A DNA stretch of 64,000 nucleotides from an uncultured virus (IMG/VR IMGVR_UViG_3300006467_000197) (IMGVR_UViG_3300006467_000197), one strand, 5' to 3'. Positions 40,986 through 56,469 are shown, counted from the first letter of the stretch. Numbers and translations are program-made. The notes: generated by a model not told the origin, from the letters alone.

Positions 40986-41040
40986 CCGCATACAACACCC
41001 TATCCGCCCGAGTCATCCTCGGGACAATATTCAATTAGTA

Positions 41041-43590
41041 TTACGTTGTCTCTTCGGAATCTTCATCAGCATAGCGAACTTGATTTGATTCAATCGGACA
41101 AATGCCTGACGAGCATTGAAGTGAATCCTCATCAACACCTACGTTGTCGATTTGAATAATTTCACTCATCAGTTGCTGGTAACGTTCATACGAGATTGGT
41201 TCTTCTGGAGCGTAGCAATAAGCCGAAGTCAGTTCATCCGGAGTTTGATAGGCATCAAACGAACAACACCGAATTTGAGATTGGTGTTTCATAACCATGT
41301 CACAGAACTCTTGTTCTGAAATTTCATTCGGGTGCCACTTCAGAGTGTAGCTGATTTGGTTGTTACGCGGTGTGCCATCTTCGTTCTTACCAAGCCAGAA
41401 TTTTTCAAAGAGACGCAGCCATTTGTAGTGATCTTCCATAGAGACTTCGGTTGCCGTAACAACCTTGTCTTTCATCATGTCAACGATTGGGAGTTTCGTC
41501 GGGAAGCCAACAATAACTTTGCCCGGATATGATTGCCCACCGTTCGGGTTAACCGAAACATCTTTGATTGGGTATCCATAATTTTTCAATTGGGTAACTT
41601 CAGGATTATCCTTACCATTGATCTTCGCTTCGTATTGAACCCAGCGCAGATAGGTACTGAAGGCAGGGAGATTCGCACACTCTGTAACTGAAATGACTTT
41701 GGAAACTGTGCCACCCGGTTTCATTGTGGTTACAGTTGCCGGGGCATTCATCCCAATCTTCTTTGAATATTTAGCAGCAGCGTCTTCTGTGCGCTGGCGC
41801 ATATCATCAAGGTGCAACCAGAACTTCAGAGATTTGAGTTTGTCTTCACGGGACGGATCATAGAAAAGCTTACGCAAATCTTCGATTGACATATCAATGA
41901 TTTTTTCAAAGTCATCAATCAGGTCATAGAACGTCAGACCGAAGAACTTAAACGCCGCTTCGTGCACACCGTTTAGAGAAACGCCAATTCGATTTGTGCG
42001 TTCTGTCTCTTGCTTGTAAAGCGACTTCATGCGGTTGACGCGAACAAGTGCTTCAGCAGTACGTTCACAGCCGAGTGTCCATTCATTGAAGTTTTTAGCA
42101 CGCGATCCGTTCACATCAGCAACAAGGCAATAACCACCACCAGTGAAAATTGCAATCTCAGCGCACGGATTACAGATCATCACATACGGTTGCTTGAGCG
42201 CGTGCGAAGTAAGCTTTCCAACCATTTCATATGTTTTTTCATGAAGCGGTGAGTCATAATAGTTGACGTTGACAGCTTGTGCAGGATCGATCTTCGCAAT
42301 CTCTTGCTGCGTTGGTGAGTGAAACTGATCAACGTTGATAAAGCCCGGCTCGCCTGACTTGTCGAGATAGATTGCACCGGTCGCAGCTTGGAAGACTCGG
42401 GCAGCGTGTGTGCGGCGATCTTTTGCCTCTTCCCAAAAGTCTTTATCTACGAGAATTGAATTATTAGCCGACCACAAACCACCACCGCGCTTAATCTCGA
42501 TGAAGTCGAAGATGTCACGGTCGCGCCAATATTTCACGGCCATACGAGCCATACGGCGAACGCCACCGAGGACAATGCAAGAGGCGAGATAGTGATCAAT
42601 GAACATTGCTTGTTTCCATGGCTGCATCCCAGCCCCACGGATTGAAGCAATCTTCTGAAATGCACGCATGAGAGGAAGCGGACCAGACGCAGGCCGGTTC
42701 TGTTGCCCACGAATTGGCGCTCCCTCTCCGCGCACCTTGGAGAAATCGAAAATGAATAATTTTTCACGATGCTTTTCATGGAAAGCAGCAGTTTCTAACG
42801 CGGCAACAGCCCGCACCCATCCTTCGCAGGAATCTTCAACTTCAAACCATCGGACAGTTTCTGACTCCGACGGGTATTTTTCACGTGCTTCTTCAAGGCT
42901 ATCAAAGCCACCTTGCAATTCGTCATATGCTTTACCGAAGTCTGCATGTTGCGAAGAGATAACGCAACGAATGTAAGGTGCGTTGTCCCAATTCACACGG
43001 CGGATAGCGCACGAATAGTCTGCGCCAATACCGGAGCCGTCTAGGCCAAGCTTGAATTGAATAAATGTGCAGATTGCGGTCGAGCAGTTTGTGAACTTCT
43101 CTTGTGTGGCGCGGCGTTGATTGAAGTCGCCGTGTTGCAGGTGACGGCCAGCAAAGGCAATAATACCTTTCTGGGCAAGTTCCCAAGTTTGTTTGAGCTG
43201 GTCGTCATTGAATAATGCAGTTGATCCGTTCAAACCTTGGCTGGCATCCCATCCAAGCATGAAGTTGCCACCAACAACTTCGTACAGGCGTTCACGCCAA
43301 GTCTGATAAGAACCGTCTTTCTTGATACGTGAATATTTGTTCTTCCAAATCTCGTTTGCCATGCCGGGGAGGACTTCATAAACTTCCTCGTCAGGAAGCA
43401 TCGACCTATCCAAGACAGAACGAATATGTGTTGCGAGTTCAGCTTCCGAACGTGGTGCGACACGCGGTTGCCACTTTGGGGCTAGAGAGAGTGCTTCGTT
43501 GCGGTTATCAAAATACGCTTCATCTGCACCGGTATTTGGTTGAGTATCGACAAGGCTTGTCGCATGTGGATCGCCTGAAAAAGCACTCAT
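41041..43590 (-). CDS. nrdJ: Ribonucleotide reductase class II (B12-dependent)
   Basis: TNCS, GGVRR.A, GEPG, NPCAEI...CL, KPGGTVS, C-terminal CSSGICP; no nrdB in window. Confidence 0.88.
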   Translation of the reverse strand: MSAFSGDPHATSLVDTQPNTGADEAYFDNRNEALSLAPKWQPRVAPRSEAELATHIRSVLDRSMLPDEEVYEVLPGMANEIWKNKYSRIKKDGSYQTWRERLYEVVGGNFMLGWDASQGLNGSTALFNDDQLKQTWELAQKGIIAFAGRHLQHGDFNQRRATQEKFTNCSTAICTFIQFKLGLDGSGIGADYSCAIRRVNWDNAPYIRCVISSQHADFGKAYDELQGGFDSLEEAREKYPSESETVRWFEVEDSCEGWVRAVAALETAAFHEKHREKLFIFDFSKVRGEGAPIRGQQNRPASGPLPLMRAFQKIASIRGAGMQPWKQAMFIDHYLASCIVLGGVRRMARMAVKYWRDRDIFDFIEIKRGGGLWSANNSILVDKDFWEEAKDRRTHAARVFQAATGAIYLDKSGEPGFINVDQFHSPTQQEIAKIDPAQAVNVNYYDSPLHEKTYEMVGKLTSHALKQPYVMICNPCAEIAIFTGGGYCLVADVNGSRAKNFNEWTLGCERTAEALVRVNRMKSLYKQETERTNRIGVSLNGVHEAAFKFFGLTFYDLIDDFEKIIDMSIEDLRKLFYDPSREDKLKSLKFWLHLDDMRQRTEDAAAKYSKKIGMNAPATVTTMKPGGTVSKVISVTECANLPAFSTYLRWVQYEAKINGKDNPEVTQLKNYGYPIKDVSVNPNGGQSYPGKVIVGFPTKLPIVDMMKDKVVTATEVSMEDHYKWLRLFEKFWLGKNEDGTPRNNQISYTLKWHPNEISEQEFCDMVMKHQSQIRCCSFDAYQTPDELTSAYCYAPEEPISYERYQQLMSEIIQIDNVGVDEDSLQCSSGICPIESNQVRYADEDSEETT

Positions 43591-43744
43591 TGTTGTTATC
43601 TCCGTTTACTGAATATTGCGACCATAGAATTCTCGGGCCTGCAAGAGTCATATTGGGAGTTTTACTGGCTAGCAGCTGAGACGAATTTTACCATGGTTTG
43701 AGAATCTTTTTCTGTAAGGCCTGAATAAATCAGAGTGCAGAACA

Positions 43745-43826
43745 AAGAAAAGCCCCTGACGCACGGGAGGACACGTCAGGGGCTTCATGGTTTGCAGGCT
43801 TCGCCGTCTCAGAGATAACAGCGACC
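43745..43826 (-). ncRNA. Candidate small RNA with CCUCCC loop
   Basis: TTGACA-17-TATATT promoter (43830-43858), one hairpin, then 12-bp terminator with loop TGTCCTCCCGTG. Confidence 0.55.
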
Positions 43827-43854
43827 TACAATATAGACCCGCTGCAAATTTATG

Positions 43855-44268
43855 TCAAGCAGTGGTTCGCCGCCGCTTTTTCGGAGCCATGGCAGAGGTC
43901 TTTTTGGCTTTCCCCGCCTTCGGTTTTGCTTCTGCTTCGTGAGAGATTTTCTTCTTCGGTTTATTCAGGCCAGTATTCGGCAGAGCGGAGACAATCGTAG
44001 CGCGTTTGTCGCTTGGGTTTGTATAGACAAACTGCACCAGTTCAGTCTGCATGTTGTCCCGCTTCTCACCATTGACGTATATTTCAAATTCACCGGTCTT
44101 GAAACAATACGTTCCTTCGACTTTGGCTTTGGGAGGGATTCGGAACAGGTCTTTTACTTCTGGAACAAACCCTGCGAATGACATTCGATAGCCTTGCAAG
44201 GAAACTGAAGCGGCGTATCCAATCAGGACGCCGCAGATACGAACTTCATTCTGCTTGCTTTTATTCAT
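43855..44268 (-). CDS. Hypothetical protein with basic tail
   Basis: Start moved to MNKSKQ (AGGA RBS). Confidence 0.75.
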   Translation of the reverse strand: MNKSKQNEVRICGVLIGYAASVSLQGYRMSFAGFVPEVKDLFRIPPKAKVEGTYCFKTGEFEIYVNGEKRDNMQTELVQFVYTNPSDKRATIVSALPNTGLNKPKKKISHEAEAKPKAGKAKKTSAMAPKKRRRTTA

Positions 44269-44278
44269 GATAGTAATC

Positions 44279-44611
44279 CTATTCTTCGTCTTCAAACTCG
44301 TCGAGGTGTGATCCCATATAAGACAACAGATTGCCTGCATGGGAAAGCGCATATTCTACCGGACCGTTTATACCTTCAAGCATGTAGAAGGGAACGGCTT
44401 GTTCATTCTCTTCAACAACTTCTTCCTCCCCGGTCTCTTCGTTCTTTTCAGTTACTTCTTCTTTTGAAAAAATAACGAAAGCGATACCAGTGACAGTCTG
44501 ATTCGAGGCAACAGTCTCTTCAACTGTTTGAACAAGGAAGCTTAGCACATCGGCATGTTGTACTTTTGCCTTTTCTAGCGTCTCTCTAAAGTGTCGAACA
44601 TTATCGCTCAT
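44279..44611 (-). CDS. Small acidic protein
   Basis: GGAGA RBS; Glu-rich. Confidence 0.75.
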   Translation of the reverse strand: MSDNVRHFRETLEKAKVQHADVLSFLVQTVEETVASNQTVTGIAFVIFSKEEVTEKNEETGEEEVVEENEQAVPFYMLEGINGPVEYALSHAGNLLSYMGSHLDEFEDEE

Positions 44612-44629
44612 TTTTCATATCTCCAGAAA

Positions 44630-44658
44630 CAAAGTGCCCAGCACGGGGCCGGGCACTT
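44630..44658 (-). terminator. Intrinsic terminator
   Basis: AAGTGCCCGGC/GCTGGGCACTT followed by T-rich tail. Confidence 0.7.
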
Positions 44659-44692
44659 CGAAGGGTAATTGTGGCAGAACCTGCGGGCTTGG

Positions 44693-44875
44693 TCAAGCTT
44701 GGCCATCAAGGGGAGCGATGCATTCAACAGGTTGACCCCAGCCCATCTTCTCCAAACCCTTGAAGATGACAATTCCTAAGATCAACGCAGCAAACCCAAA
44801 TGAAAAAATAATAGCCCATCCGAAAACATGCGATGATCCTTCACCAATCGATTGCTTTGGTTCAACCGGCATCAC
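44693..44875 (-). CDS. Small membrane protein
   Basis: GGAGG RBS; one TM. Confidence 0.7.
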   Translation of the reverse strand: MMPVEPKQSIGEGSSHVFGWAIIFSFGFAALILGIVIFKGLEKMGWGQPVECIAPLDGQA

Positions 44876-44885
44876 TCCCTCCTGA

Positions 44886-45029
44886 TCAAACGTTGAAAAT
44901 TAAACCAATAATAGGCAACCCAACCAGCATAACCAACAGGAACAGGATTAACCCTCCTAACGGGCCTCCCTCCTCCGGATAGATAGGCCCGTCATAGTAA
45001 GCTAGGTAGTCGTCTTCATCGTCTGCCAT
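44886..45029 (-). CDS. Small membrane protein (47 aa)
   Basis: Not in ORF track; AAGGA RBS; MADDEDDYLAYY...LILFLLVMLVGLPIIGLIF. Confidence 0.65.
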   Translation of the reverse strand: MADDEDDYLAYYDGPIYPEEGGPLGGLILFLLVMLVGLPIIGLIFNV

Positions 45030-45047
45030 CTTTAGGTTCCTTGAATA

Positions 45048-46211
45048 TTAAGACATAAGTGCTTTCACAACACGTGATACACCGTCTTCAACATGACGTA
45101 CACCCAAGATGAGATTTGCAACGTCGTTATAAGCCAAGTTCTCGGTAGCCAAGGGCAGCATTTCCGTTTGGTCGCGACCGCGAATGTATTTTTCAACCTC
45201 GGCAATCTTGTCAATCATCTGCGCGCCGAGGTCTTTGATGTCATCCATCAACTCAAGCTCACGCGGTTCGGCTTTGCGATAGCGTTTGCGCATCATATGT
45301 TGACCGGGAGTAAGCCGCTCAAAGGCCTGAGAGTCTTCACGTGCATCAGGTTTTGAATTTTCAAATACACTTACGTCAGGTTCGGTTACTGGCATACTTT
45401 CAAAAAGCTCTTTGATCTTCTTAATATCAACCTCGTCTTTCGATTCAACGGGGATATGGACAGAGAAACGACTTTGTGGGTCGGTAATACAAATTGTCTG
45501 ACCCGCGCGCGGGTTGTCTTCTTCCGTTTCTTGCTCGCCTAGATCGTCGGTCTCGTTTCTGAATATTTGAACATTATCGAGGGCATAATTGTCCTGATCA
45601 TACTGTGGTTCTTTTTGCTCGATTTGGAACATGGCGTGAAATGACCCGAATAATTCAATAAGCCCACGACCAAATTGCGTATAACCATCACTCGCGGAGA
45701 ACGCCAACATATCATTGATAACGATGCAGGTGTGCTTGGAATTATTAAGCGGGTAGTAGGTGTCCCCTTTGTAATAGAGTGCGCCGTCCGGAGCCAATCG
45801 ACCTTTAAAATAAATATCAAGGCCAAGAGCTTCATCAAGTGTACGACCATTGAGAATAGACTTTCCGATGTCAGTAAGCCCCGTTTCTAACGAGAAAATT
45901 ATTCGATCATCGTACTGAACAGTAGCCTCGACAACTTCTCCGTAATCTTCTCCGTCGCCATCATCGAAATTTTCAATATCTTCGATTTCATCATCATCAA
46001 ACTCGGTGTGATCTTCAGCTTCTGGGGTTTCAGAGTCGTCTACTTCATCGACTTCTGTCGTATTTGAATATTCGTCAGAAGTTTCACCTTCAGTTACCGG
46101 GACCGGGGCCGGGACGGCTGGGGCCGGCTGCGGCGTGTCTTCACTAGCTGGGGAAGGTAAATTTTCAGTTGTTTCAACTTCGACTTCTACGTCTTTGTCT
46201 TGATCAGTCAT
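45048..46211 (-). CDS. Acidic protein with C-terminal Acb2/Tad1-like domain
   Basis: C-terminus RKRYR...ELELMDDIKDLGAQMIDKIAEV...LILGVRHVEDGVSRVVKAL. Confidence 0.75.
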   Translation of the reverse strand: MTDQDKDVEVEVETTENLPSPASEDTPQPAPAVPAPVPVTEGETSDEYSNTTEVDEVDDSETPEAEDHTEFDDDEIEDIENFDDGDGEDYGEVVEATVQYDDRIIFSLETGLTDIGKSILNGRTLDEALGLDIYFKGRLAPDGALYYKGDTYYPLNNSKHTCIVINDMLAFSASDGYTQFGRGLIELFGSFHAMFQIEQKEPQYDQDNYALDNVQIFRNETDDLGEQETEEDNPRAGQTICITDPQSRFSVHIPVESKDEVDIKKIKELFESMPVTEPDVSVFENSKPDAREDSQAFERLTPGQHMMRKRYRKAEPRELELMDDIKDLGAQMIDKIAEVEKYIRGRDQTEMLPLATENLAYNDVANLILGVRHVEDGVSRVVKALMS

Positions 46212-46234
46212 GCCTGTCTCCTATAGCTGGCGTG

Positions 46235-46540
46235 CTATGATTTACCGGCAATCCTTTGGTAGTGTTCACGCCCTTTGAGAGTAAGTTTCAACAGCGGGCG
46301 CATATCGACGTAAGATAATACAGCTAATTTTTCAGTAATCAGCTGATCTTCAGCACATGTCATATTGCGAATGTCTACTTCCGGCATCGATGCAGTTTCT
46401 ACAAGAAACTTGAGAAGTACCTTGGACTCATCCGACAATGCAATCGTGTATTTTTTATTTTTCAATCTATGCAAAAATACTGCAAGTCCTGCAGCAAGCA
46501 ATACAGCTACTCCACCAGCAGCCCCAATCATCGATACCAT
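46235..46540 (-). CDS. TM-anchored hypothetical protein
   Basis: N-terminal TM; LTLKGR. Confidence 0.65.
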   Translation of the reverse strand: MVSMIGAAGGVAVLLAAGLAVFLHRLKNKKYTIALSDESKVLLKFLVETASMPEVDIRNMTCAEDQLITEKLAVLSYVDMRPLLKLTLKGREHYQRIAGKS

Positions 46541-46560
46541 ATCTCAGCCCGTATGTTTAT

Positions 46561-46677
46561 TCAGTCTTTGTTTCGGGCTTTGGTAAGAATAGCCAAGAGC
46601 CCGAAGATGGCAGCAGCCCCAACTACCAAAACAACCATGACTGTGATGTCAGTTCCTGCGATTTCGATTCTTGGCAT
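46561..46677 (-). CDS. Small membrane protein (38 aa)
   Basis: Not in ORF track; GGAGA RBS; MPRIEIAGTDITVMVVLVVGAAAIFGLLAIL. Confidence 0.6.
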   Translation of the reverse strand: MPRIEIAGTDITVMVVLVVGAAAIFGLLAILTKARNKD

Positions 46678-46909
46678 TTTTCAGTCTCCGTCTTCCTGAT
46701 TTGGCTAAGCGGCGCTCGTGCCGGTTTGTCGGCTCCAAAGAACTTTCGTAAGGAACCATATACTCACTTTCGATCTTGGCTTTATCACCAGTGATTGTGA
46801 TTGCTGGGACCTTGCAACTACATTTCGGATCAGTGCAATTTGCCATATGCTCTTGCTCACGCGTCAAAAGCGCCGCTGCAAGAGTTGAAAAATTAATGAC
46901 AGTCTTCAT
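46649..46909 (-). CDS. Hypothetical protein with NRHERR basic tail
   Basis: AGGA RBS. Confidence 0.7.
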   Translation of the reverse strand: MKTVINFSTLAAALLTREQEHMANCTDPKCSCKVPAITITGDKAKIESEYMVPYESSLEPTNRHERRLAKSGRRRLKNAKNRNRRN

Positions 46910-46930
46910 TGCACCAATCCTGTTCTACCT

Positions 46931-46946
46931 ATTTACCATGGTAAAT
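46931..46946. promoter_or_regulatory. Palindrome ATTTACCATGGTAAAT (copy 4)
   Basis: 16-bp perfect palindrome directly after the SWIM gene stop. Confidence 0.75.
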
Positions 46947-47533
46947 TACCACTTCCGTTTGCGCAATCCTTTGCGAACTCGGAAGATATGTTTGCACACG
47001 GCATTTCTCATTCGCGGGTTTGTTGTCTTTGGGGGCTCACCATTACCGAAAACAACTTCTGCAGCACCTTTGCGCCAAACAGCGTATTCCCACATGTATT
47101 TCCAACGTTCGCAATCACATGAAAAAACAATCTGAGGGCAGTCAATCAGACGGCCTTTATAGTTCGGATCGCGAGCATAGATAAGTTGGCGGTGATAGCG
47201 CCGCCCTTTCTCGTCTTTTGTAACTGTGATGTAAGACACGGCTTTGTTGCCAGTGCCCGGAAGCGTACCAAGCTTCGGATACTGCTTGCCTTTGAATGAC
47301 GTAACAGTGAAAACGTTATTGGCATTGAATATATCAGGACGATACGGCATGAGCTTGACAACTTGGTCAAGGCTAAGCCCTTGAGCCCGTTCCTTCAAGG
47401 GAAGGACAACAGGGCGCGAACGGATTGAAGGAATGCGAATTTGCCCCTTATTCCCGTGAGGCATTTTGCTTCGCTTGGTTTTGGAACGCTTTGCGGCGTC
47501 CGTCATAAACGGACGCCTTTTACGGTTGGCCAT
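46946..47533 (-). CDS. SWIM zinc-finger protein
   Basis: FSCDC..W.Y...NP.....CKH (CxC-n-CxH). Confidence 0.8.
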   Translation of the reverse strand: MANRKRRPFMTDAAKRSKTKRSKMPHGNKGQIRIPSIRSRPVVLPLKERAQGLSLDQVVKLMPYRPDIFNANNVFTVTSFKGKQYPKLGTLPGTGNKAVSYITVTKDEKGRRYHRQLIYARDPNYKGRLIDCPQIVFSCDCERWKYMWEYAVWRKGAAEVVFGNGEPPKTTNPRMRNAVCKHIFRVRKGLRKRKW

Positions 47534-47561
47534 TATCGAACTCCTGTAATCGAATATTCAA

Positions 47562-48806
47562 TTAGGCTTTTCTGATCCCGAGCTGCTTCACAAAGAACTC
47601 ACGGAGCGAAGACACAATGTCTACCGGCTCAATTCCGCGCTTCTTTAAATAATCAATAAGGTGACGCGGCGTGTAGTCTTCAGGAAGGTCCATGTACTCT
47701 TCCAGATCGAGCACACACAGAAAAGTGCTGATCGAATTGAGGTGGCCGTCAGCGTTTTGCCATGCCGCTGTATTTTCAGCTATCTGCTGAGCGAAGTCAT
47801 CTTCTTCCTGCGCATACGGATAATCGTCATCGCTGTAGAAGTCGCCGTCATCGTCATCTTCAAAGTCGTCATCGTCATAGTCGTCGTTTGCATCGAACGC
47901 GCGACGTGCACTGTTGATCGCCTCCCGGCTGATAAGGCTGTGCGATGCATCATCCATTTCTGAATTTTCAATCTCTTCATCCAGAACCGGAACAATGAAC
48001 TCGCCTTGCATGGTCTGGATGACAGAGCACTTCCCAGAAGCCAGAGGCTCTTGGAAATTGAAAATTCGTTCCAGCGGTGACTCGGGGATAGGATCAAGTT
48101 CGATCCCGTCGAGACCTTCGATAGTCACACCGCCCATTTCACCAGATAGCTCACTGTATTCTTCGACCGCACGGTCGCGTGCTTCCGGAGTGATACCTGT
48201 GAGCCTGCCCAATATGTTCTTTATTTCTTTTTTCATTTCTTTTTCGTTGTTGCTAAGGAAAGACCGGTGAAACCTGAGCCTGTCCTGTGAATTGCAGTAT
48301 TGCAGGCCTAAAGATAGCACTGCCTCAAGGTCAATGTAAGGGAGGGTGACGTATCCCTGATTTTCCGGGGCTTTAAGGTCTATATCTTCAGGGTCCAAGG
48401 TATTCCATACGCTGGCAACAAGGTTAATGGCGTCGGCTCTTTCTTCCTTGAAAAAATGCAAGGCGTCAACCTCTTTTGTCGAGAATACACCGAAGTAAAC
48501 CATCTGATCAGTTGTCAAATGGCCGAGGTGTGTAAGCGTAGCCATGTTTAAATTTTCAATGTCTTTGCTGACCGTAGCCATCCGTATCAGTGAAATGAGC
48601 GGCATGGAGAAAACAGTCATGTAGCAATCATTGTCTTTCAGGTAAGCTCGCTGCTTACCTGAAATAATAACGTTGGTGGTAGGTAATTGAGGCGCAACGT
48701 CATACTCTGAATGAGTGTTGTTCATATGTATCCTTCCGAAGAAGGGAACGACGTACTCAGTGTTCTCAAAGTTGATGTTCATTTGTGAATCCAAGATAGG
48801 AGGCAC
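47562..48806 (-). CDS. Acidic hypothetical protein
   Basis: 414 aa with DDYDDDDFEDDDD tract. Confidence 0.8.
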   Translation of the reverse strand: MPPILDSQMNINFENTEYVVPFFGRIHMNNTHSEYDVAPQLPTTNVIISGKQRAYLKDNDCYMTVFSMPLISLIRMATVSKDIENLNMATLTHLGHLTTDQMVYFGVFSTKEVDALHFFKEERADAINLVASVWNTLDPEDIDLKAPENQGYVTLPYIDLEAVLSLGLQYCNSQDRLRFHRSFLSNNEKEMKKEIKNILGRLTGITPEARDRAVEEYSELSGEMGGVTIEGLDGIELDPIPESPLERIFNFQEPLASGKCSVIQTMQGEFIVPVLDEEIENSEMDDASHSLISREAINSARRAFDANDDYDDDDFEDDDDGDFYSDDDYPYAQEEDDFAQQIAENTAAWQNADGHLNSISTFLCVLDLEEYMDLPEDYTPRHLIDYLKKRGIEPVDIVSSLREFFVKQLGIRKA

Positions 48807-49222
48807 GATTCAAGTTGTGCCAAGTTTTCCAGTGTAGGATTAAATTTAGCGGAATCTGGCATGAAAAATTGCCAAGTTCTGGAAAGTTGATGGAAAACTT
48901 CTTTCAAGGGATTGTAAATATTACACTTTGCCCGTGAGAAGCCAATCGTTTCGGCATACTTCAAACTGCGCTCAAGAGTATCAAATCCGACGATGGCAAA
49001 AACGTCTTGGTCGTACCTGTCACCGACTCTCTTATCATCCAGATCGATGATTGAATTTTCAGCTGGATCGTCAGGGAGAACAGGACGCAGTAGAACGATA
49101 AGTCCAAATTGCAGCTTTGAATTCACGTGAACCAGTGCTGTACGGCAAACGAGGTTTGAGCTTTCAGGCAATGTTAAAGGCTTGTTTTCAGATACCTTGA
49201 ATATTTTAAGAGAGTAGGACAT
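48779..49222 (-). CDS. Hypothetical protein
   Basis: Start moved to MSYSLK (GAGG RBS). Confidence 0.7.
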   Translation of the reverse strand: MSYSLKIFKVSENKPLTLPESSNLVCRTALVHVNSKLQFGLIVLLRPVLPDDPAENSIIDLDDKRVGDRYDQDVFAIVGFDTLERSLKYAETIGFSRAKCNIYNPLKEVFHQLSRTWQFFMPDSAKFNPTLENLAQLESCLLSWIHK

Positions 49223-55260: not shown

Positions 55261-56469
55261 TCAACGACTCTTTTTACGGCGGCGGGAACTCTTTTGTTTA
55301 CGGGGCTTTTCGCGTGTTTCCCCGGCCCAGCTTTTCTTGCCGGAAACCCTCGACTTTTTCTTCTTGTTCGAAGACTTCGATTTTTTCAGTTTCTTTGCGA
55401 CTGCCTCACCATCGTCTTTCACCGGGTTTTCAATACCACGACGCTCCGCTTCAATTGCAGATGCTAAATATTCAACCCGGTCAACCATAACACCCGGCAT
55501 TTTGCCACCGGGGCAGCGGCCTGACTCGAAATGCGGGCATTCATTCCGACCATAAAAGTGAGCCTTCATCCAGTCCTTGTATTCTTTCTTGTTACTGCAC
55601 GGTCGAAGTTTGACGATATTTTCAGCGTACTTAACACGGCCAGTATCGAGAAGCTTAACAACATTCTTGCGACCTTTTGCGGCCTTATCCAAACGCGCTT
55701 CCCAAAGCTCACGTTCAGCGTCATCCCAAACGTTCGACACAGTTCTGATCATCGGACCCCGGCGACCAGTTGAAAAATTAGTCTTATCGCGTGCAACGTA
55801 GGTAATGCCCCAGCCTGCAACCTTGTATTTGGCAAACCGTTCAATAATAACGCAGTAGTTTGAAATCTGCGTTGCGTACTTCAGTGCTGGATAAGTTTTC
55901 TTCCAGTCTGGTTTTGATATTTTTTCATAACCAGTTGTCTTGAGGTCATCAACCCAAAGCTTTTTGTTGATCAGGAAAATCAAGTCAACGTGAATTGAGA
56001 GCGGCGCGGGATTACCGAACTTGTCCAGCTCACCTTTATCGATTGTATATTCAAGATACACAAAGTGTTTATGCTTTTTGTCGCAATTGCAAGGCTCCGG
56101 TTGGAGACAACCGTGATACTGTCGCCTCCATTCGCCGTTATTATCTTTCTGACCGCAACCAGAACAAACCCAATCACCCCAAAGATTGTCCTTGTATTTT
56201 TCAAGGCGCGGCAACCACTTCTGCACATTCTCGTGCACAGCCGTGCCAATTCCGGTATAGAAGCCGGAACGATAACCTTCTTCGAAACCAATGATGCCAC
56301 TGATTCTATTTTCAAGGTCGAGAATTGGACAGTACGGGAAAGAAGAGGACCGGAACTCACTGCGCTTATCGATACCGCCTGAAGCCGTTTCCAGTTCAGT
56401 GAATATTCCTTCGATAAAGTCGTTGAACTTCTTTGACTGTTCGTATTCTGTATAAAGAGCTTCGCCCAA
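55261..56469 (-). CDS. Cas4-like PD-(D/E)XK exonuclease with Cys cluster
   Basis: SS.PYCP, GTAVH, HVD, DLKT, Q..NY, C-terminal PC...CPH...C; TTG start after GGAGA. Confidence 0.82.
   Translation of the reverse strand: MGEALYTEYEQSKKFNDFIEGIFTELETASGGIDKRSEFRSSSFPYCPILDLENRISGIIGFEEGYRSGFYTGIGTAVHENVQKWLPRLEKYKDNLWGDWVCSGCGQKDNNGEWRRQYHGCLQPEPCNCDKKHKHFVYLEYTIDKGELDKFGNPAPLSIHVDLIFLINKKLWVDDLKTTGYEKISKPDWKKTYPALKYATQISNYCVIIERFAKYKVAGWGITYVARDKTNFSTGRRGPMIRTVSNVWDDAERELWEARLDKAAKGRKNVVKLLDTGRVKYAENIVKLRPCSNKKEYKDWMKAHFYGRNECPHFESGRCPGGKMPGVMVDRVEYLASAIEAERRGIENPVKDDGEAVAKKLKKSKSSNKKKKSRVSGKKSWAGETREKPRKQKSSRRRKKSR

Follow-up and report, generated by a model that had tools for sequence, protein, structure and literature searches.

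A divergent Acb2-family sponge unit at the C-terminus of a long acidic protein from an uncultured phage

A 387-residue protein (P0001), encoded on the minus strand of DNA from an uncultured virus (IMG/VR IMGVR_UViG_3300006467_000197), ends in a unit that is, by sequence and profile comparison, a divergent member of the Acb2 family of sponges. Its reading frame occupies positions 45048..46211, stop codon included, of the 64,000-nucleotide stretch of DNA that was analysed (the window). Sponge proteins are a main phage route to silencing nucleotide-based immunity (CBASS, Thoeris and Pycsar), and the usual picture of Acb2 and related Tad1-type sponges is of very small oligomers that stand alone; here, the Acb2 domain instead closes a long protein that opens with an acidic tail, an orphan middle domain and an acidic linker. 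The same fused architecture is present in a second, divergent protein (P0002), the domain is confidently modelled as a helical hairpin, and two residues of the cyclic-dinucleotide site are kept. P0001 is probably a working cyclic-nucleotide sponge that, by analogy with solved Acb2 proteins, would form an Acb2-type hexamer with N-terminal arms and serve the phage in counter-defence. The layout is rare and new for a known counter-defence protein, and fused Acb2 forms as such are not unique. The preliminary description of the locus, which read this 387-aa minus-strand frame as an Acb2/Tad1-type sponge domain fused to an acidic N-terminus and a middle region, is confirmed for the frame and is supported for the domain by sequence, profile and fold.

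The Acb2-family sponge unit spans residues 280-387 (45051..45374, minus strand) and is recognized by Pfam, PHROG, hhalign, the structural model and Foldseek. The Pfam family PF24729 (Acb2_Tad1_hairpin) matches residues 311-385 with an E of 5.8e-5 and 23.6 bits. This score, like that of P0002 (25.2 bits), misses the gathering threshold of 27 bits, an operational cut-off that corresponds to no biological feature, and the shortfall is explained by sequence divergence and by a loop that is 20 residues longer, such that 75 residues align with 55 profile positions. The phrog_717 profile matches P0001 at an E of 8e-4 and is the PHROG of the solved Acb2, with PaP2 p26 scoring 9.8e-33 over the same profile positions. 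The sole phmmer match of the protein in the PDB is Acb2 p26 (8h2j and 8ixz, E 0.011); a profile of 12 relatives finds Acb2 in the PDB at an E of 6e-4, and pairwise BLASTP of the domain with p26 gives an E of 2e-7. Alignment of the 12-sequence profile to Acb2 PaP2 p26 by hhalign returns a probability of 91.3% (E 9.4e-7), which bears out the proposed kinship to Acb2, and the Acb2 pattern given in the preliminary description agrees with the real p26 sequence.

Homology to Acb2 also runs through the relatives of the unit. A phmmer search with the C-terminal 98 residues against 1.84 billion representatives yields 13 hits, one of which (975 aa, matched in five stretches) resembles low-complexity noise, and the Pfam gathering score is passed by 8 of the 10 true short relatives. 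A profile search at E <= 0.001 collects 248 proteins, and PF24729 is found in nearly all of the 120 listed. A lead motif that the subfamily shares, V-F/Y-x-G-x-P-D-x-R-Q/E, opens the conserved unit near residue 280. The unit is thus about 108 aa long from the lead motif on, and not the ~85 aa first proposed from a C-terminal text that does begin where it was placed, at residue 304 (QHMM..., coordinate 45302). No other part of the protein is as well conserved: identity to P0002 is 68% here versus 32% in the middle domain. Judged by these comparisons, residues 280-387 are a genuine, divergent member of the Acb2 family (PF24729, phrog_717).

The predicted fold is of the same kind. An AlphaFold2 model built from 121 sequences places helices at residues 316-344, 355-360 and 363-386 of the sponge unit, with a mean pLDDT per 10-residue block of 83-97 across residues 291-387, except for 75 at residues 351-360; the single-sequence AlphaFold model is uninformative (pLDDT 38.9). 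The two long antiparallel helices are modelled as a hairpin, which is a feature of Acb2. A Foldseek search of the PDB with the whole-protein model, in line with the structural relationship suggested earlier, places Acb2 structures at all of ranks 1-6 with a probability of 1.00, a target TM of 0.60-0.67 and 23-25% identity; the E values of these six matches are 0.027-0.089, and no match in the search reaches 0.001. T4 Vs.4 appears at rank 12 of the same search. The corresponding BFVD search returns mostly noise from the disordered parts, together with two compact high-probability rows, one of which is named an Acb2/Tad1 hairpin protein.

Acb2 had been taken to be always stand-alone; this does not hold for the family as sampled here, as 18 of the 120 listed relatives (248 found) exceed 130 aa. 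An RyR domain precedes Acb2 in six of the 120 (P0104, P0113, P0115, P0120, P0121 and P0122), and other long relatives carry unnamed front domains, that of P0119 matching phrog_11049 at 6.8e-12. Some of the long relatives may be mis-called starts; the arginine-rich front of P0042 has this appearance when judged by eye. In a Pfam scan of 16 long forms, P0001 included, the hairpin match ends at most 5 residues from the C-terminus in 15, and in the sixteenth (P0010) an insertion splits the hairpin, which still ends the protein. N-terminal additions to the Acb2 domain thus appear, from sequence, to be recurrent, with the hairpin always at the extreme C-terminus. The phrog_717 profile has 289 positions, of which Acb2 occupies 199-286, and this length suggests that long Acb2 forms are found among cultured phages too. 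The whole architecture, by contrast, is common to P0001 and P0002 only, among 5.8 billion clusters. P0002 has 375 aa, is 36% identical overall and has the same order of parts, with identities to P0001 of 37% in the tail, 32% in the middle domain, 11% in the linker and, as noted, the highest value in the sponge unit.

The region ahead of the sponge unit includes three parts. The first is an acidic, proline-rich tail (residues 1-95; 45927..46211, minus strand), predicted to be disordered from its composition and from a model pLDDT of 38-65. It was rightly described as part of a long acidic protein: P0001 has 91 D/E versus 34 K/R residues and a computed pI of 4.14, and its tail has 37 D/E versus 1 K/R, for a net charge of -36, with no secondary structure in the model. 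The tail of P0002 (residues 1-131) is likewise acidic, with a net charge of -43. Acidic tracts also occur in neighbouring phage proteins, encoded by the ORFs at 47562-48806 and 44279-44611.

The second part is the aromatic-rich orphan middle domain (residues 96-205; 45597..45926, minus strand), which is identified by its phmmer match to P0002 and is modelled with a block-mean pLDDT of 76-77 at residues 101-120, 77-82 at residues 161-190 and 40-58 elsewhere. When residues 91-285 are searched by phmmer, P0002 is the sole match among all fetched proteins (E 5.6e-16). No family of Pfam, PHROG or NCBIfam matches the middle domain, a search for a shorter homologue found none, and comparison with the Atlas gave no usable feature match (TM <= 0.42, from a poor model). 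Two modelled repeats are apparent. Repeat 1 (residues 97-129; 45825..45923, minus strand) has a strand-strand-helix-helix order, with strands at 97-100 and 103-107 and helices at 114-120 and 125-129, and carries the motif F-x4-G-L-T-D-x-G-K; its pLDDT is ~77 only at residues 101-120 and ~53 at 121-130. Repeat 2 (residues 162-194; 45630..45728, minus strand) has the same order of elements, with strands at 162-165 and 168-172 and helices at 179-188 and 191-194, and carries the motif F-x4-G-Y-T-Q-x-G-R; its pLDDT is 77-82 at residues 161-190 and ~58 beyond. The two motifs occupy equivalent places in the repeats and are seen again in P0002, in both of its units.

The internal duplication claimed at the outset agrees with the shared secondary-structure pattern and with the recurrence of the motifs in P0002. 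BLASTP of residues 95-165 against residues 166-215 gives no alignment at E <= 100. A Smith-Waterman shuffle test of the P0001 repeats, with windows picked post hoc, gives a score of 37 versus 18.4 +/- 3.6, reached in 2 of 2000 shuffles; the equivalent figure is 22/2000 within P0002, and 16/2000 and 571/2000 in two cross-comparisons. Alignment of the repeat units by hhalign yields a P of 0.011. A duplication within the middle domain is plausible, if weakly supported by these statistics. The third part, an acidic linker with a modelled strand-strand-helix module (residues 206-279; 45375..45596, minus strand), is the least conserved segment relative to P0002. Residues 199-231 have a pLDDT < 50 and are predicted to be disordered, and the strand-strand-helix module, at residues 239-272, is absent from P0002.

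These N-terminal parts bear on a second reading, in which P0001 has two functions and the Acb2 sponge is joined to a further, new anti-defence module (a second sponge, a protein inhibitor or a mimic of nucleic acids) that the hexamer would show six-fold. One protein would then soak up an alarm nucleotide and also bind or mimic a second target, such as another signal, a protein of a defence system or defence factors that bind nucleic acids. Fusions of one phage sponge to another are frequent (10.1101/2025.07.12.664507), and the RyR domain that fronts six of the listed relatives belongs to a published sponge, RyR Tad, which binds gcADPR and acts on Thoeris (10.64898/2026.06.04.730250). The conservation of the middle domain between P0001 and P0002, its partial folding in the model, and an acidity of the tail that is kept while the tail sequence is not, all speak for a second module. 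However, the middle domain is without a relative outside P0002 and without a family match, guilt by fusion is a weak argument with a single partner lineage, and the acidic tracts of the neighbouring proteins suggest that the acidic tail may reflect a general trait of this genome and not a device. On balance, a two-function protein is conceivable but rather unlikely.

A similar degree of doubt attaches to the narrower proposal that the orphan N-terminal region, meaning the repeated beta-hairpin-helix domain and perhaps the -36 tail, is a new counter-defence device carried six-fold on an Acb2 hexamer. If it were, the region would represent a new anti-defence family, reached by the same fused-to-sponge logic that found Sequestin. 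Fusions of Tad2 with Acb4, and of Sequestin (PF21825) with Tad2 or Acb4, led to a new sponge family (10.1101/2025.07.12.664507). Because the partner domains of sponges have already yielded such a family, the orphan domain of P0001 and the unnamed front domains of other long relatives are cheap, testable candidates for counter-defence.

The binding residues of the sponge unit were described at first as partly diverged, which is correct for one of the two ligand sites of Acb2. In the alignments, Tyr311 (codon 45279..45281, minus strand) is equivalent to Acb2 Y11, which stacks on a base of the cyclic dinucleotide, and Lys326 (codon 45234..45236, minus strand) is equivalent to Acb2 K26, which forms a salt bridge with the ligand; the Y11A and K26A substitutions each abolish cGAMP binding by Acb2 (PMC10312549). 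Tyr is present at position 311 in 120 of 121 aligned relatives and Lys at position 326 in 121 of 121, and both equivalents are present in P0002. Further p26 residues that match in the alignment are Q4-H5, R12, E18, M22, L28-G29, Q31, G72 and G79, with R85 replaced by K383. The pair used for cyclic trinucleotides has diverged, R67 being replaced by A365 and T74 by R372. R67 and T74 are reported to be less conserved among Acb2 homologues, with the T4 and CHI14 Acb2 proteins each lacking one of them (PMC10312549), and the loss thus concerns the range of ligands and not family membership. The chain also stops one residue before the position of Acb2 P90, which is reported to contribute to the pocket (10.1101/2025.08.24.671296). 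P0001 keeps R372, R380 and K383, which vary little or not at all across the 121 relatives, and R372 might still bind phosphate. Judged from these positions, the cyclic-dinucleotide site looks intact and the trinucleotide site remodelled.

P0001 and P0002 depart from their closest subfamily at four near-invariant positions (F to M307, H to M322, A to G329 and Y to S379), and three of these departures are the canonical p26 residues (the M22, G29 and G79 equivalents). The pair is thus placed between canonical Acb2 and the large metagenome-only subfamily, a placement that helps to separate residues fixed by the fold from those that set the ligand. The same four departures, along with the loss of R67/T74 and the missing P90 position, might instead be taken to mean that the hairpin is an oligomerisation module only, one that binds no signal and gathers six N-terminal domains bearing the real function. 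This is improbable, as both proteins keep the dinucleotide-binding residues Y311 and K326, R372, R380 and K383 are retained, several of the departures are residues of canonical p26, and the sponge unit is the segment on which conservation is concentrated.

If P0001 is a working sponge, as we favour, its mechanism would follow that of solved Acb2. The sponge unit would assemble as a hexamer (trimer of dimers), with each pocket made by the N-terminal ends of helix 1 from two protomers, in which Tyr311 and Lys326 would hold the ligand. A cyclic-nucleotide alarm signal of the host, of the CBASS type, would be trapped in these pockets and, with the signal trapped, the host effector would never be switched on. 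The trapped signal could just as well be one of Thoeris, as for some Acb2 homologues. Ligands in the Acb2 family vary and include cGAMP, cA3 and 3'cADPR (PMC10312549; 10.1101/2025.08.24.671296), which leaves several candidate ligands for P0001. Residues 1-279, comprising the polyanionic tail, two beta-hairpin-helix units and the acidic linker, would form six flexible arms off the vertices of the hexamer, an arrangement that is compatible with additions being always N-terminal.

The reading frame has a ribosome-binding site, AGGAG (46218..46222, minus strand), which precedes the ATG at 46211 by 6 nt. The frame recurs at 100% identity and uninterrupted on an independent metagenome contig of 1361 bp (L003), and the metagenome scan found nothing beyond that contig. 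An internal start at Met273 was considered and rejected, since its ribosome-binding site is poor and P0002 has no Met there. That the long frame is an artefact, either of two genes that an error in sequencing or assembly has joined or of a ~115-aa sponge that begins at Met273, is hardly credible: some long relatives do resemble mis-called starts and Met273 lies just ahead of the conserved unit, but the identical frame stands on an independent contig, the 36%-identical P0002 keeps the order of parts, and Met273 is preceded by GAAAG only, two bases away, while a good AGGAG precedes the annotated start.

The gene belongs to a block of small genes of unknown kind on the minus strand of a large phage, with genes of nucleotide metabolism and replication alongside. 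The window encodes thymidylate synthase, a dCTP-deaminase-like protein, both topoisomerase II subunits, a UvsX-type recombinase, a gp32-like SSB, a sigma-factor-like protein, a dNMP kinase, DHFR and a class II ribonucleotide reductase. The topoisomerase is at most 34% identical to its counterparts in cultured phages of ~200 kb, and the source is a large, deeply divergent phage. The gene block ends at a strong terminator-like hairpin of 16 pairs followed by a T-run (43749..43786, minus strand), which comes from a scan by consensus only that found 8 sites versus 6.0 +/- 2.7 in shuffles. When 92 other ORFs of the window were compared with Pfam at E <= 1e-4, no second sponge gene emerged. Neither tblastn with the whole protein, nor blastn with positions 41001-49000, nor tblastn with the stand-alone relative P0009 found a match in 50,697 cultured-phage records; at these sensitivities, the lineage is absent from cultured phages. 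Viral contigs scanned with the protein, and again with the two-sequence alignment, yielded no confirmed relative.

Of the known sponges, Acb2 of PaMx33/PaP2 (p26; PDB 8H2J, 8H2X and 8IXZ) is the best PDB match to P0001 by sequence, profile and Foldseek. The two have in common the two long antiparallel helices, the pattern Q-H-x4-Y-R ... M-x3-K-x-L-G-x-Q in the first helix and G-x5-(R/K)-A in the last, with ~27% identity over the domain. P0001 differs in length (387 aa versus 93 aa), in the extra conserved lead motif before helix 1 and in the longer inter-helix loop. T4 Vs.4 (T4 Acb2, PDB 7UQ2) belongs to a large myovirus whose T4-type replication gene set is like that of the window and, as reported in PMC10312549, is without an R67 equivalent, as is P0001; it differs in being a small stand-alone protein with 6-12% identity in structural alignments. 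The closest relatives of the domain are those of a metagenomic Acb2 subfamily (P0003-P0122), which are 24-45% identical to the P0001 domain and have the consensus N-V-Y-E-G-x-x-D-A-R-Q ... L-F-R-K-R-Y-R ... L-H-D-x-I-K-D ... R-H-L-E-D-x-V-Y-R-x-V-K-A-L-T-A. The subfamily and P0001 have the lead motif, Y311, K326, R372, R380 and K383 in common; the median length of the subfamily is 108 aa, versus 387 aa for P0001.

Tad1 (PDB 7UAV/7UAW) belongs to the same Pfam hairpin family, forms a hexamer that is a trimer of dimers and has, ahead of the hairpin, an N-terminal beta domain that makes the gcADPR pocket. Tad1 binds cyclic trinucleotides by an R/T pair seven residues apart (10.1101/2023.11.15.567273), and this pair is absent from P0001. 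Membership of P0001 in Tad1 was considered and is not favoured: no Tad1 chain appears in the PDB sequence searches (E <= 10 and E <= 1) or among the Foldseek/VIA matches listed, where the fold-search lists are filled by a single domain. Some Acb2 homologues inhibit Thoeris by binding 3'cADPR, aided by extra terminal strands, according to a survey of 9141 Acb2 homologues with lengths up to 500 aa (10.1101/2025.08.24.671296). In the literature that was searched, no long Acb2 with several domains is described, although the tables of that survey could include such forms, and no paper pairs Acb2 with an RyR domain. The closest parallels in layout are the RyR-Acb2, Tad2-Acb4 and Sequestin fusions, in which, as in P0001, an N-terminal partner is followed by a C-terminal sponge. 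In those fusions the partner is itself a known sponge (RyR Tad, Tad2 or Sequestin), whereas in P0001 it is an orphan domain with a polyanionic tail.

Judged from its sequence, the source of the window is a large and very divergent phage. A blastn search of positions 41001-49000 against 50,697 phage records returns zero matches, the large subunit of the topoisomerase II is at most 34% identical to its counterparts in cultured phages (with a 195-kb Vibrio phage as the top match), and a Pfam scan of 92 window ORFs at E <= 1e-4 left 78 of them without a family.

The window genes for which coordinates are given below are on the minus strand, as is the putative sponge gene (45048-46211), which encodes P0001. 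Long Asp/Glu runs recur in two neighbours of P0001, the products of 47562-48806 and 44279-44611, neither of which has a family match in Pfam or PHROG; in the 414-aa ORF, a stretch of about 30 residues is Asp/Glu almost throughout. Acidic tracts may be a habit of the early proteins of this phage. Another neighbour, a 195-aa protein (46946-47533), matches phrog_18980 (E 4e-23), a family of unknown function, and has no Pfam match at E <= 1. By eye, a C-x-C ... C-x-H arrangement near residues 138-185 of this protein resembles a SWIM-type zinc finger. The sponge gene is also flanked by three small ORFs of 47, 60 and 101 aa (44693-45029 and 46235-46540), which are without family matches in Pfam and PHROG; each has a single hydrophobic stretch that, by eye, is membrane-helix-like.

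The block of small genes that includes the sponge gene is followed by a strong terminator-like hairpin (43749-43786) and, directly downstream, by the gene for an 849-aa class II (B12-dependent) ribonucleotide reductase (41041-43590), identified by its PF21995 insertion domain (E 1.7e-9) and a match to phrog_367 (E 3.2e-77). Elsewhere in the window, residues 31-232 of a 402-aa protein (55261-56469) match phrog_1706 ('CRISPR/Cas system associated'; E 6.4e-10), and the protein has no Pfam match at E <= 1e-4.

The proteins related to P0001 through its Acb2 unit include further fusions. In P0008, P0013 and P0119 (189-222 aa), the Acb2 hairpin is preceded by a common but unnamed N-terminal domain, about 90 aa long, which is a candidate for an accessory or anti-defence role; in P0119, this domain matches phrog_11049 (E 6.8e-12) and also part of a PHROG annotated as MazG-like pyrophosphatase (E 4e-6). 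In P0104, P0113, P0115, P0120 and P0122 (232-245 aa) and in P0121 (493 aa), the Acb2 hairpin is fused to a RyR domain (PF02026), a pairing for which no single paper naming both Acb2 and 'RyR domain' was found in the incomplete literature collection searched. Since RyR Tad is a published gcADPR sponge (10.64898/2026.06.04.730250), these six RyR-Acb2 fusions are probably two-sponge proteins.
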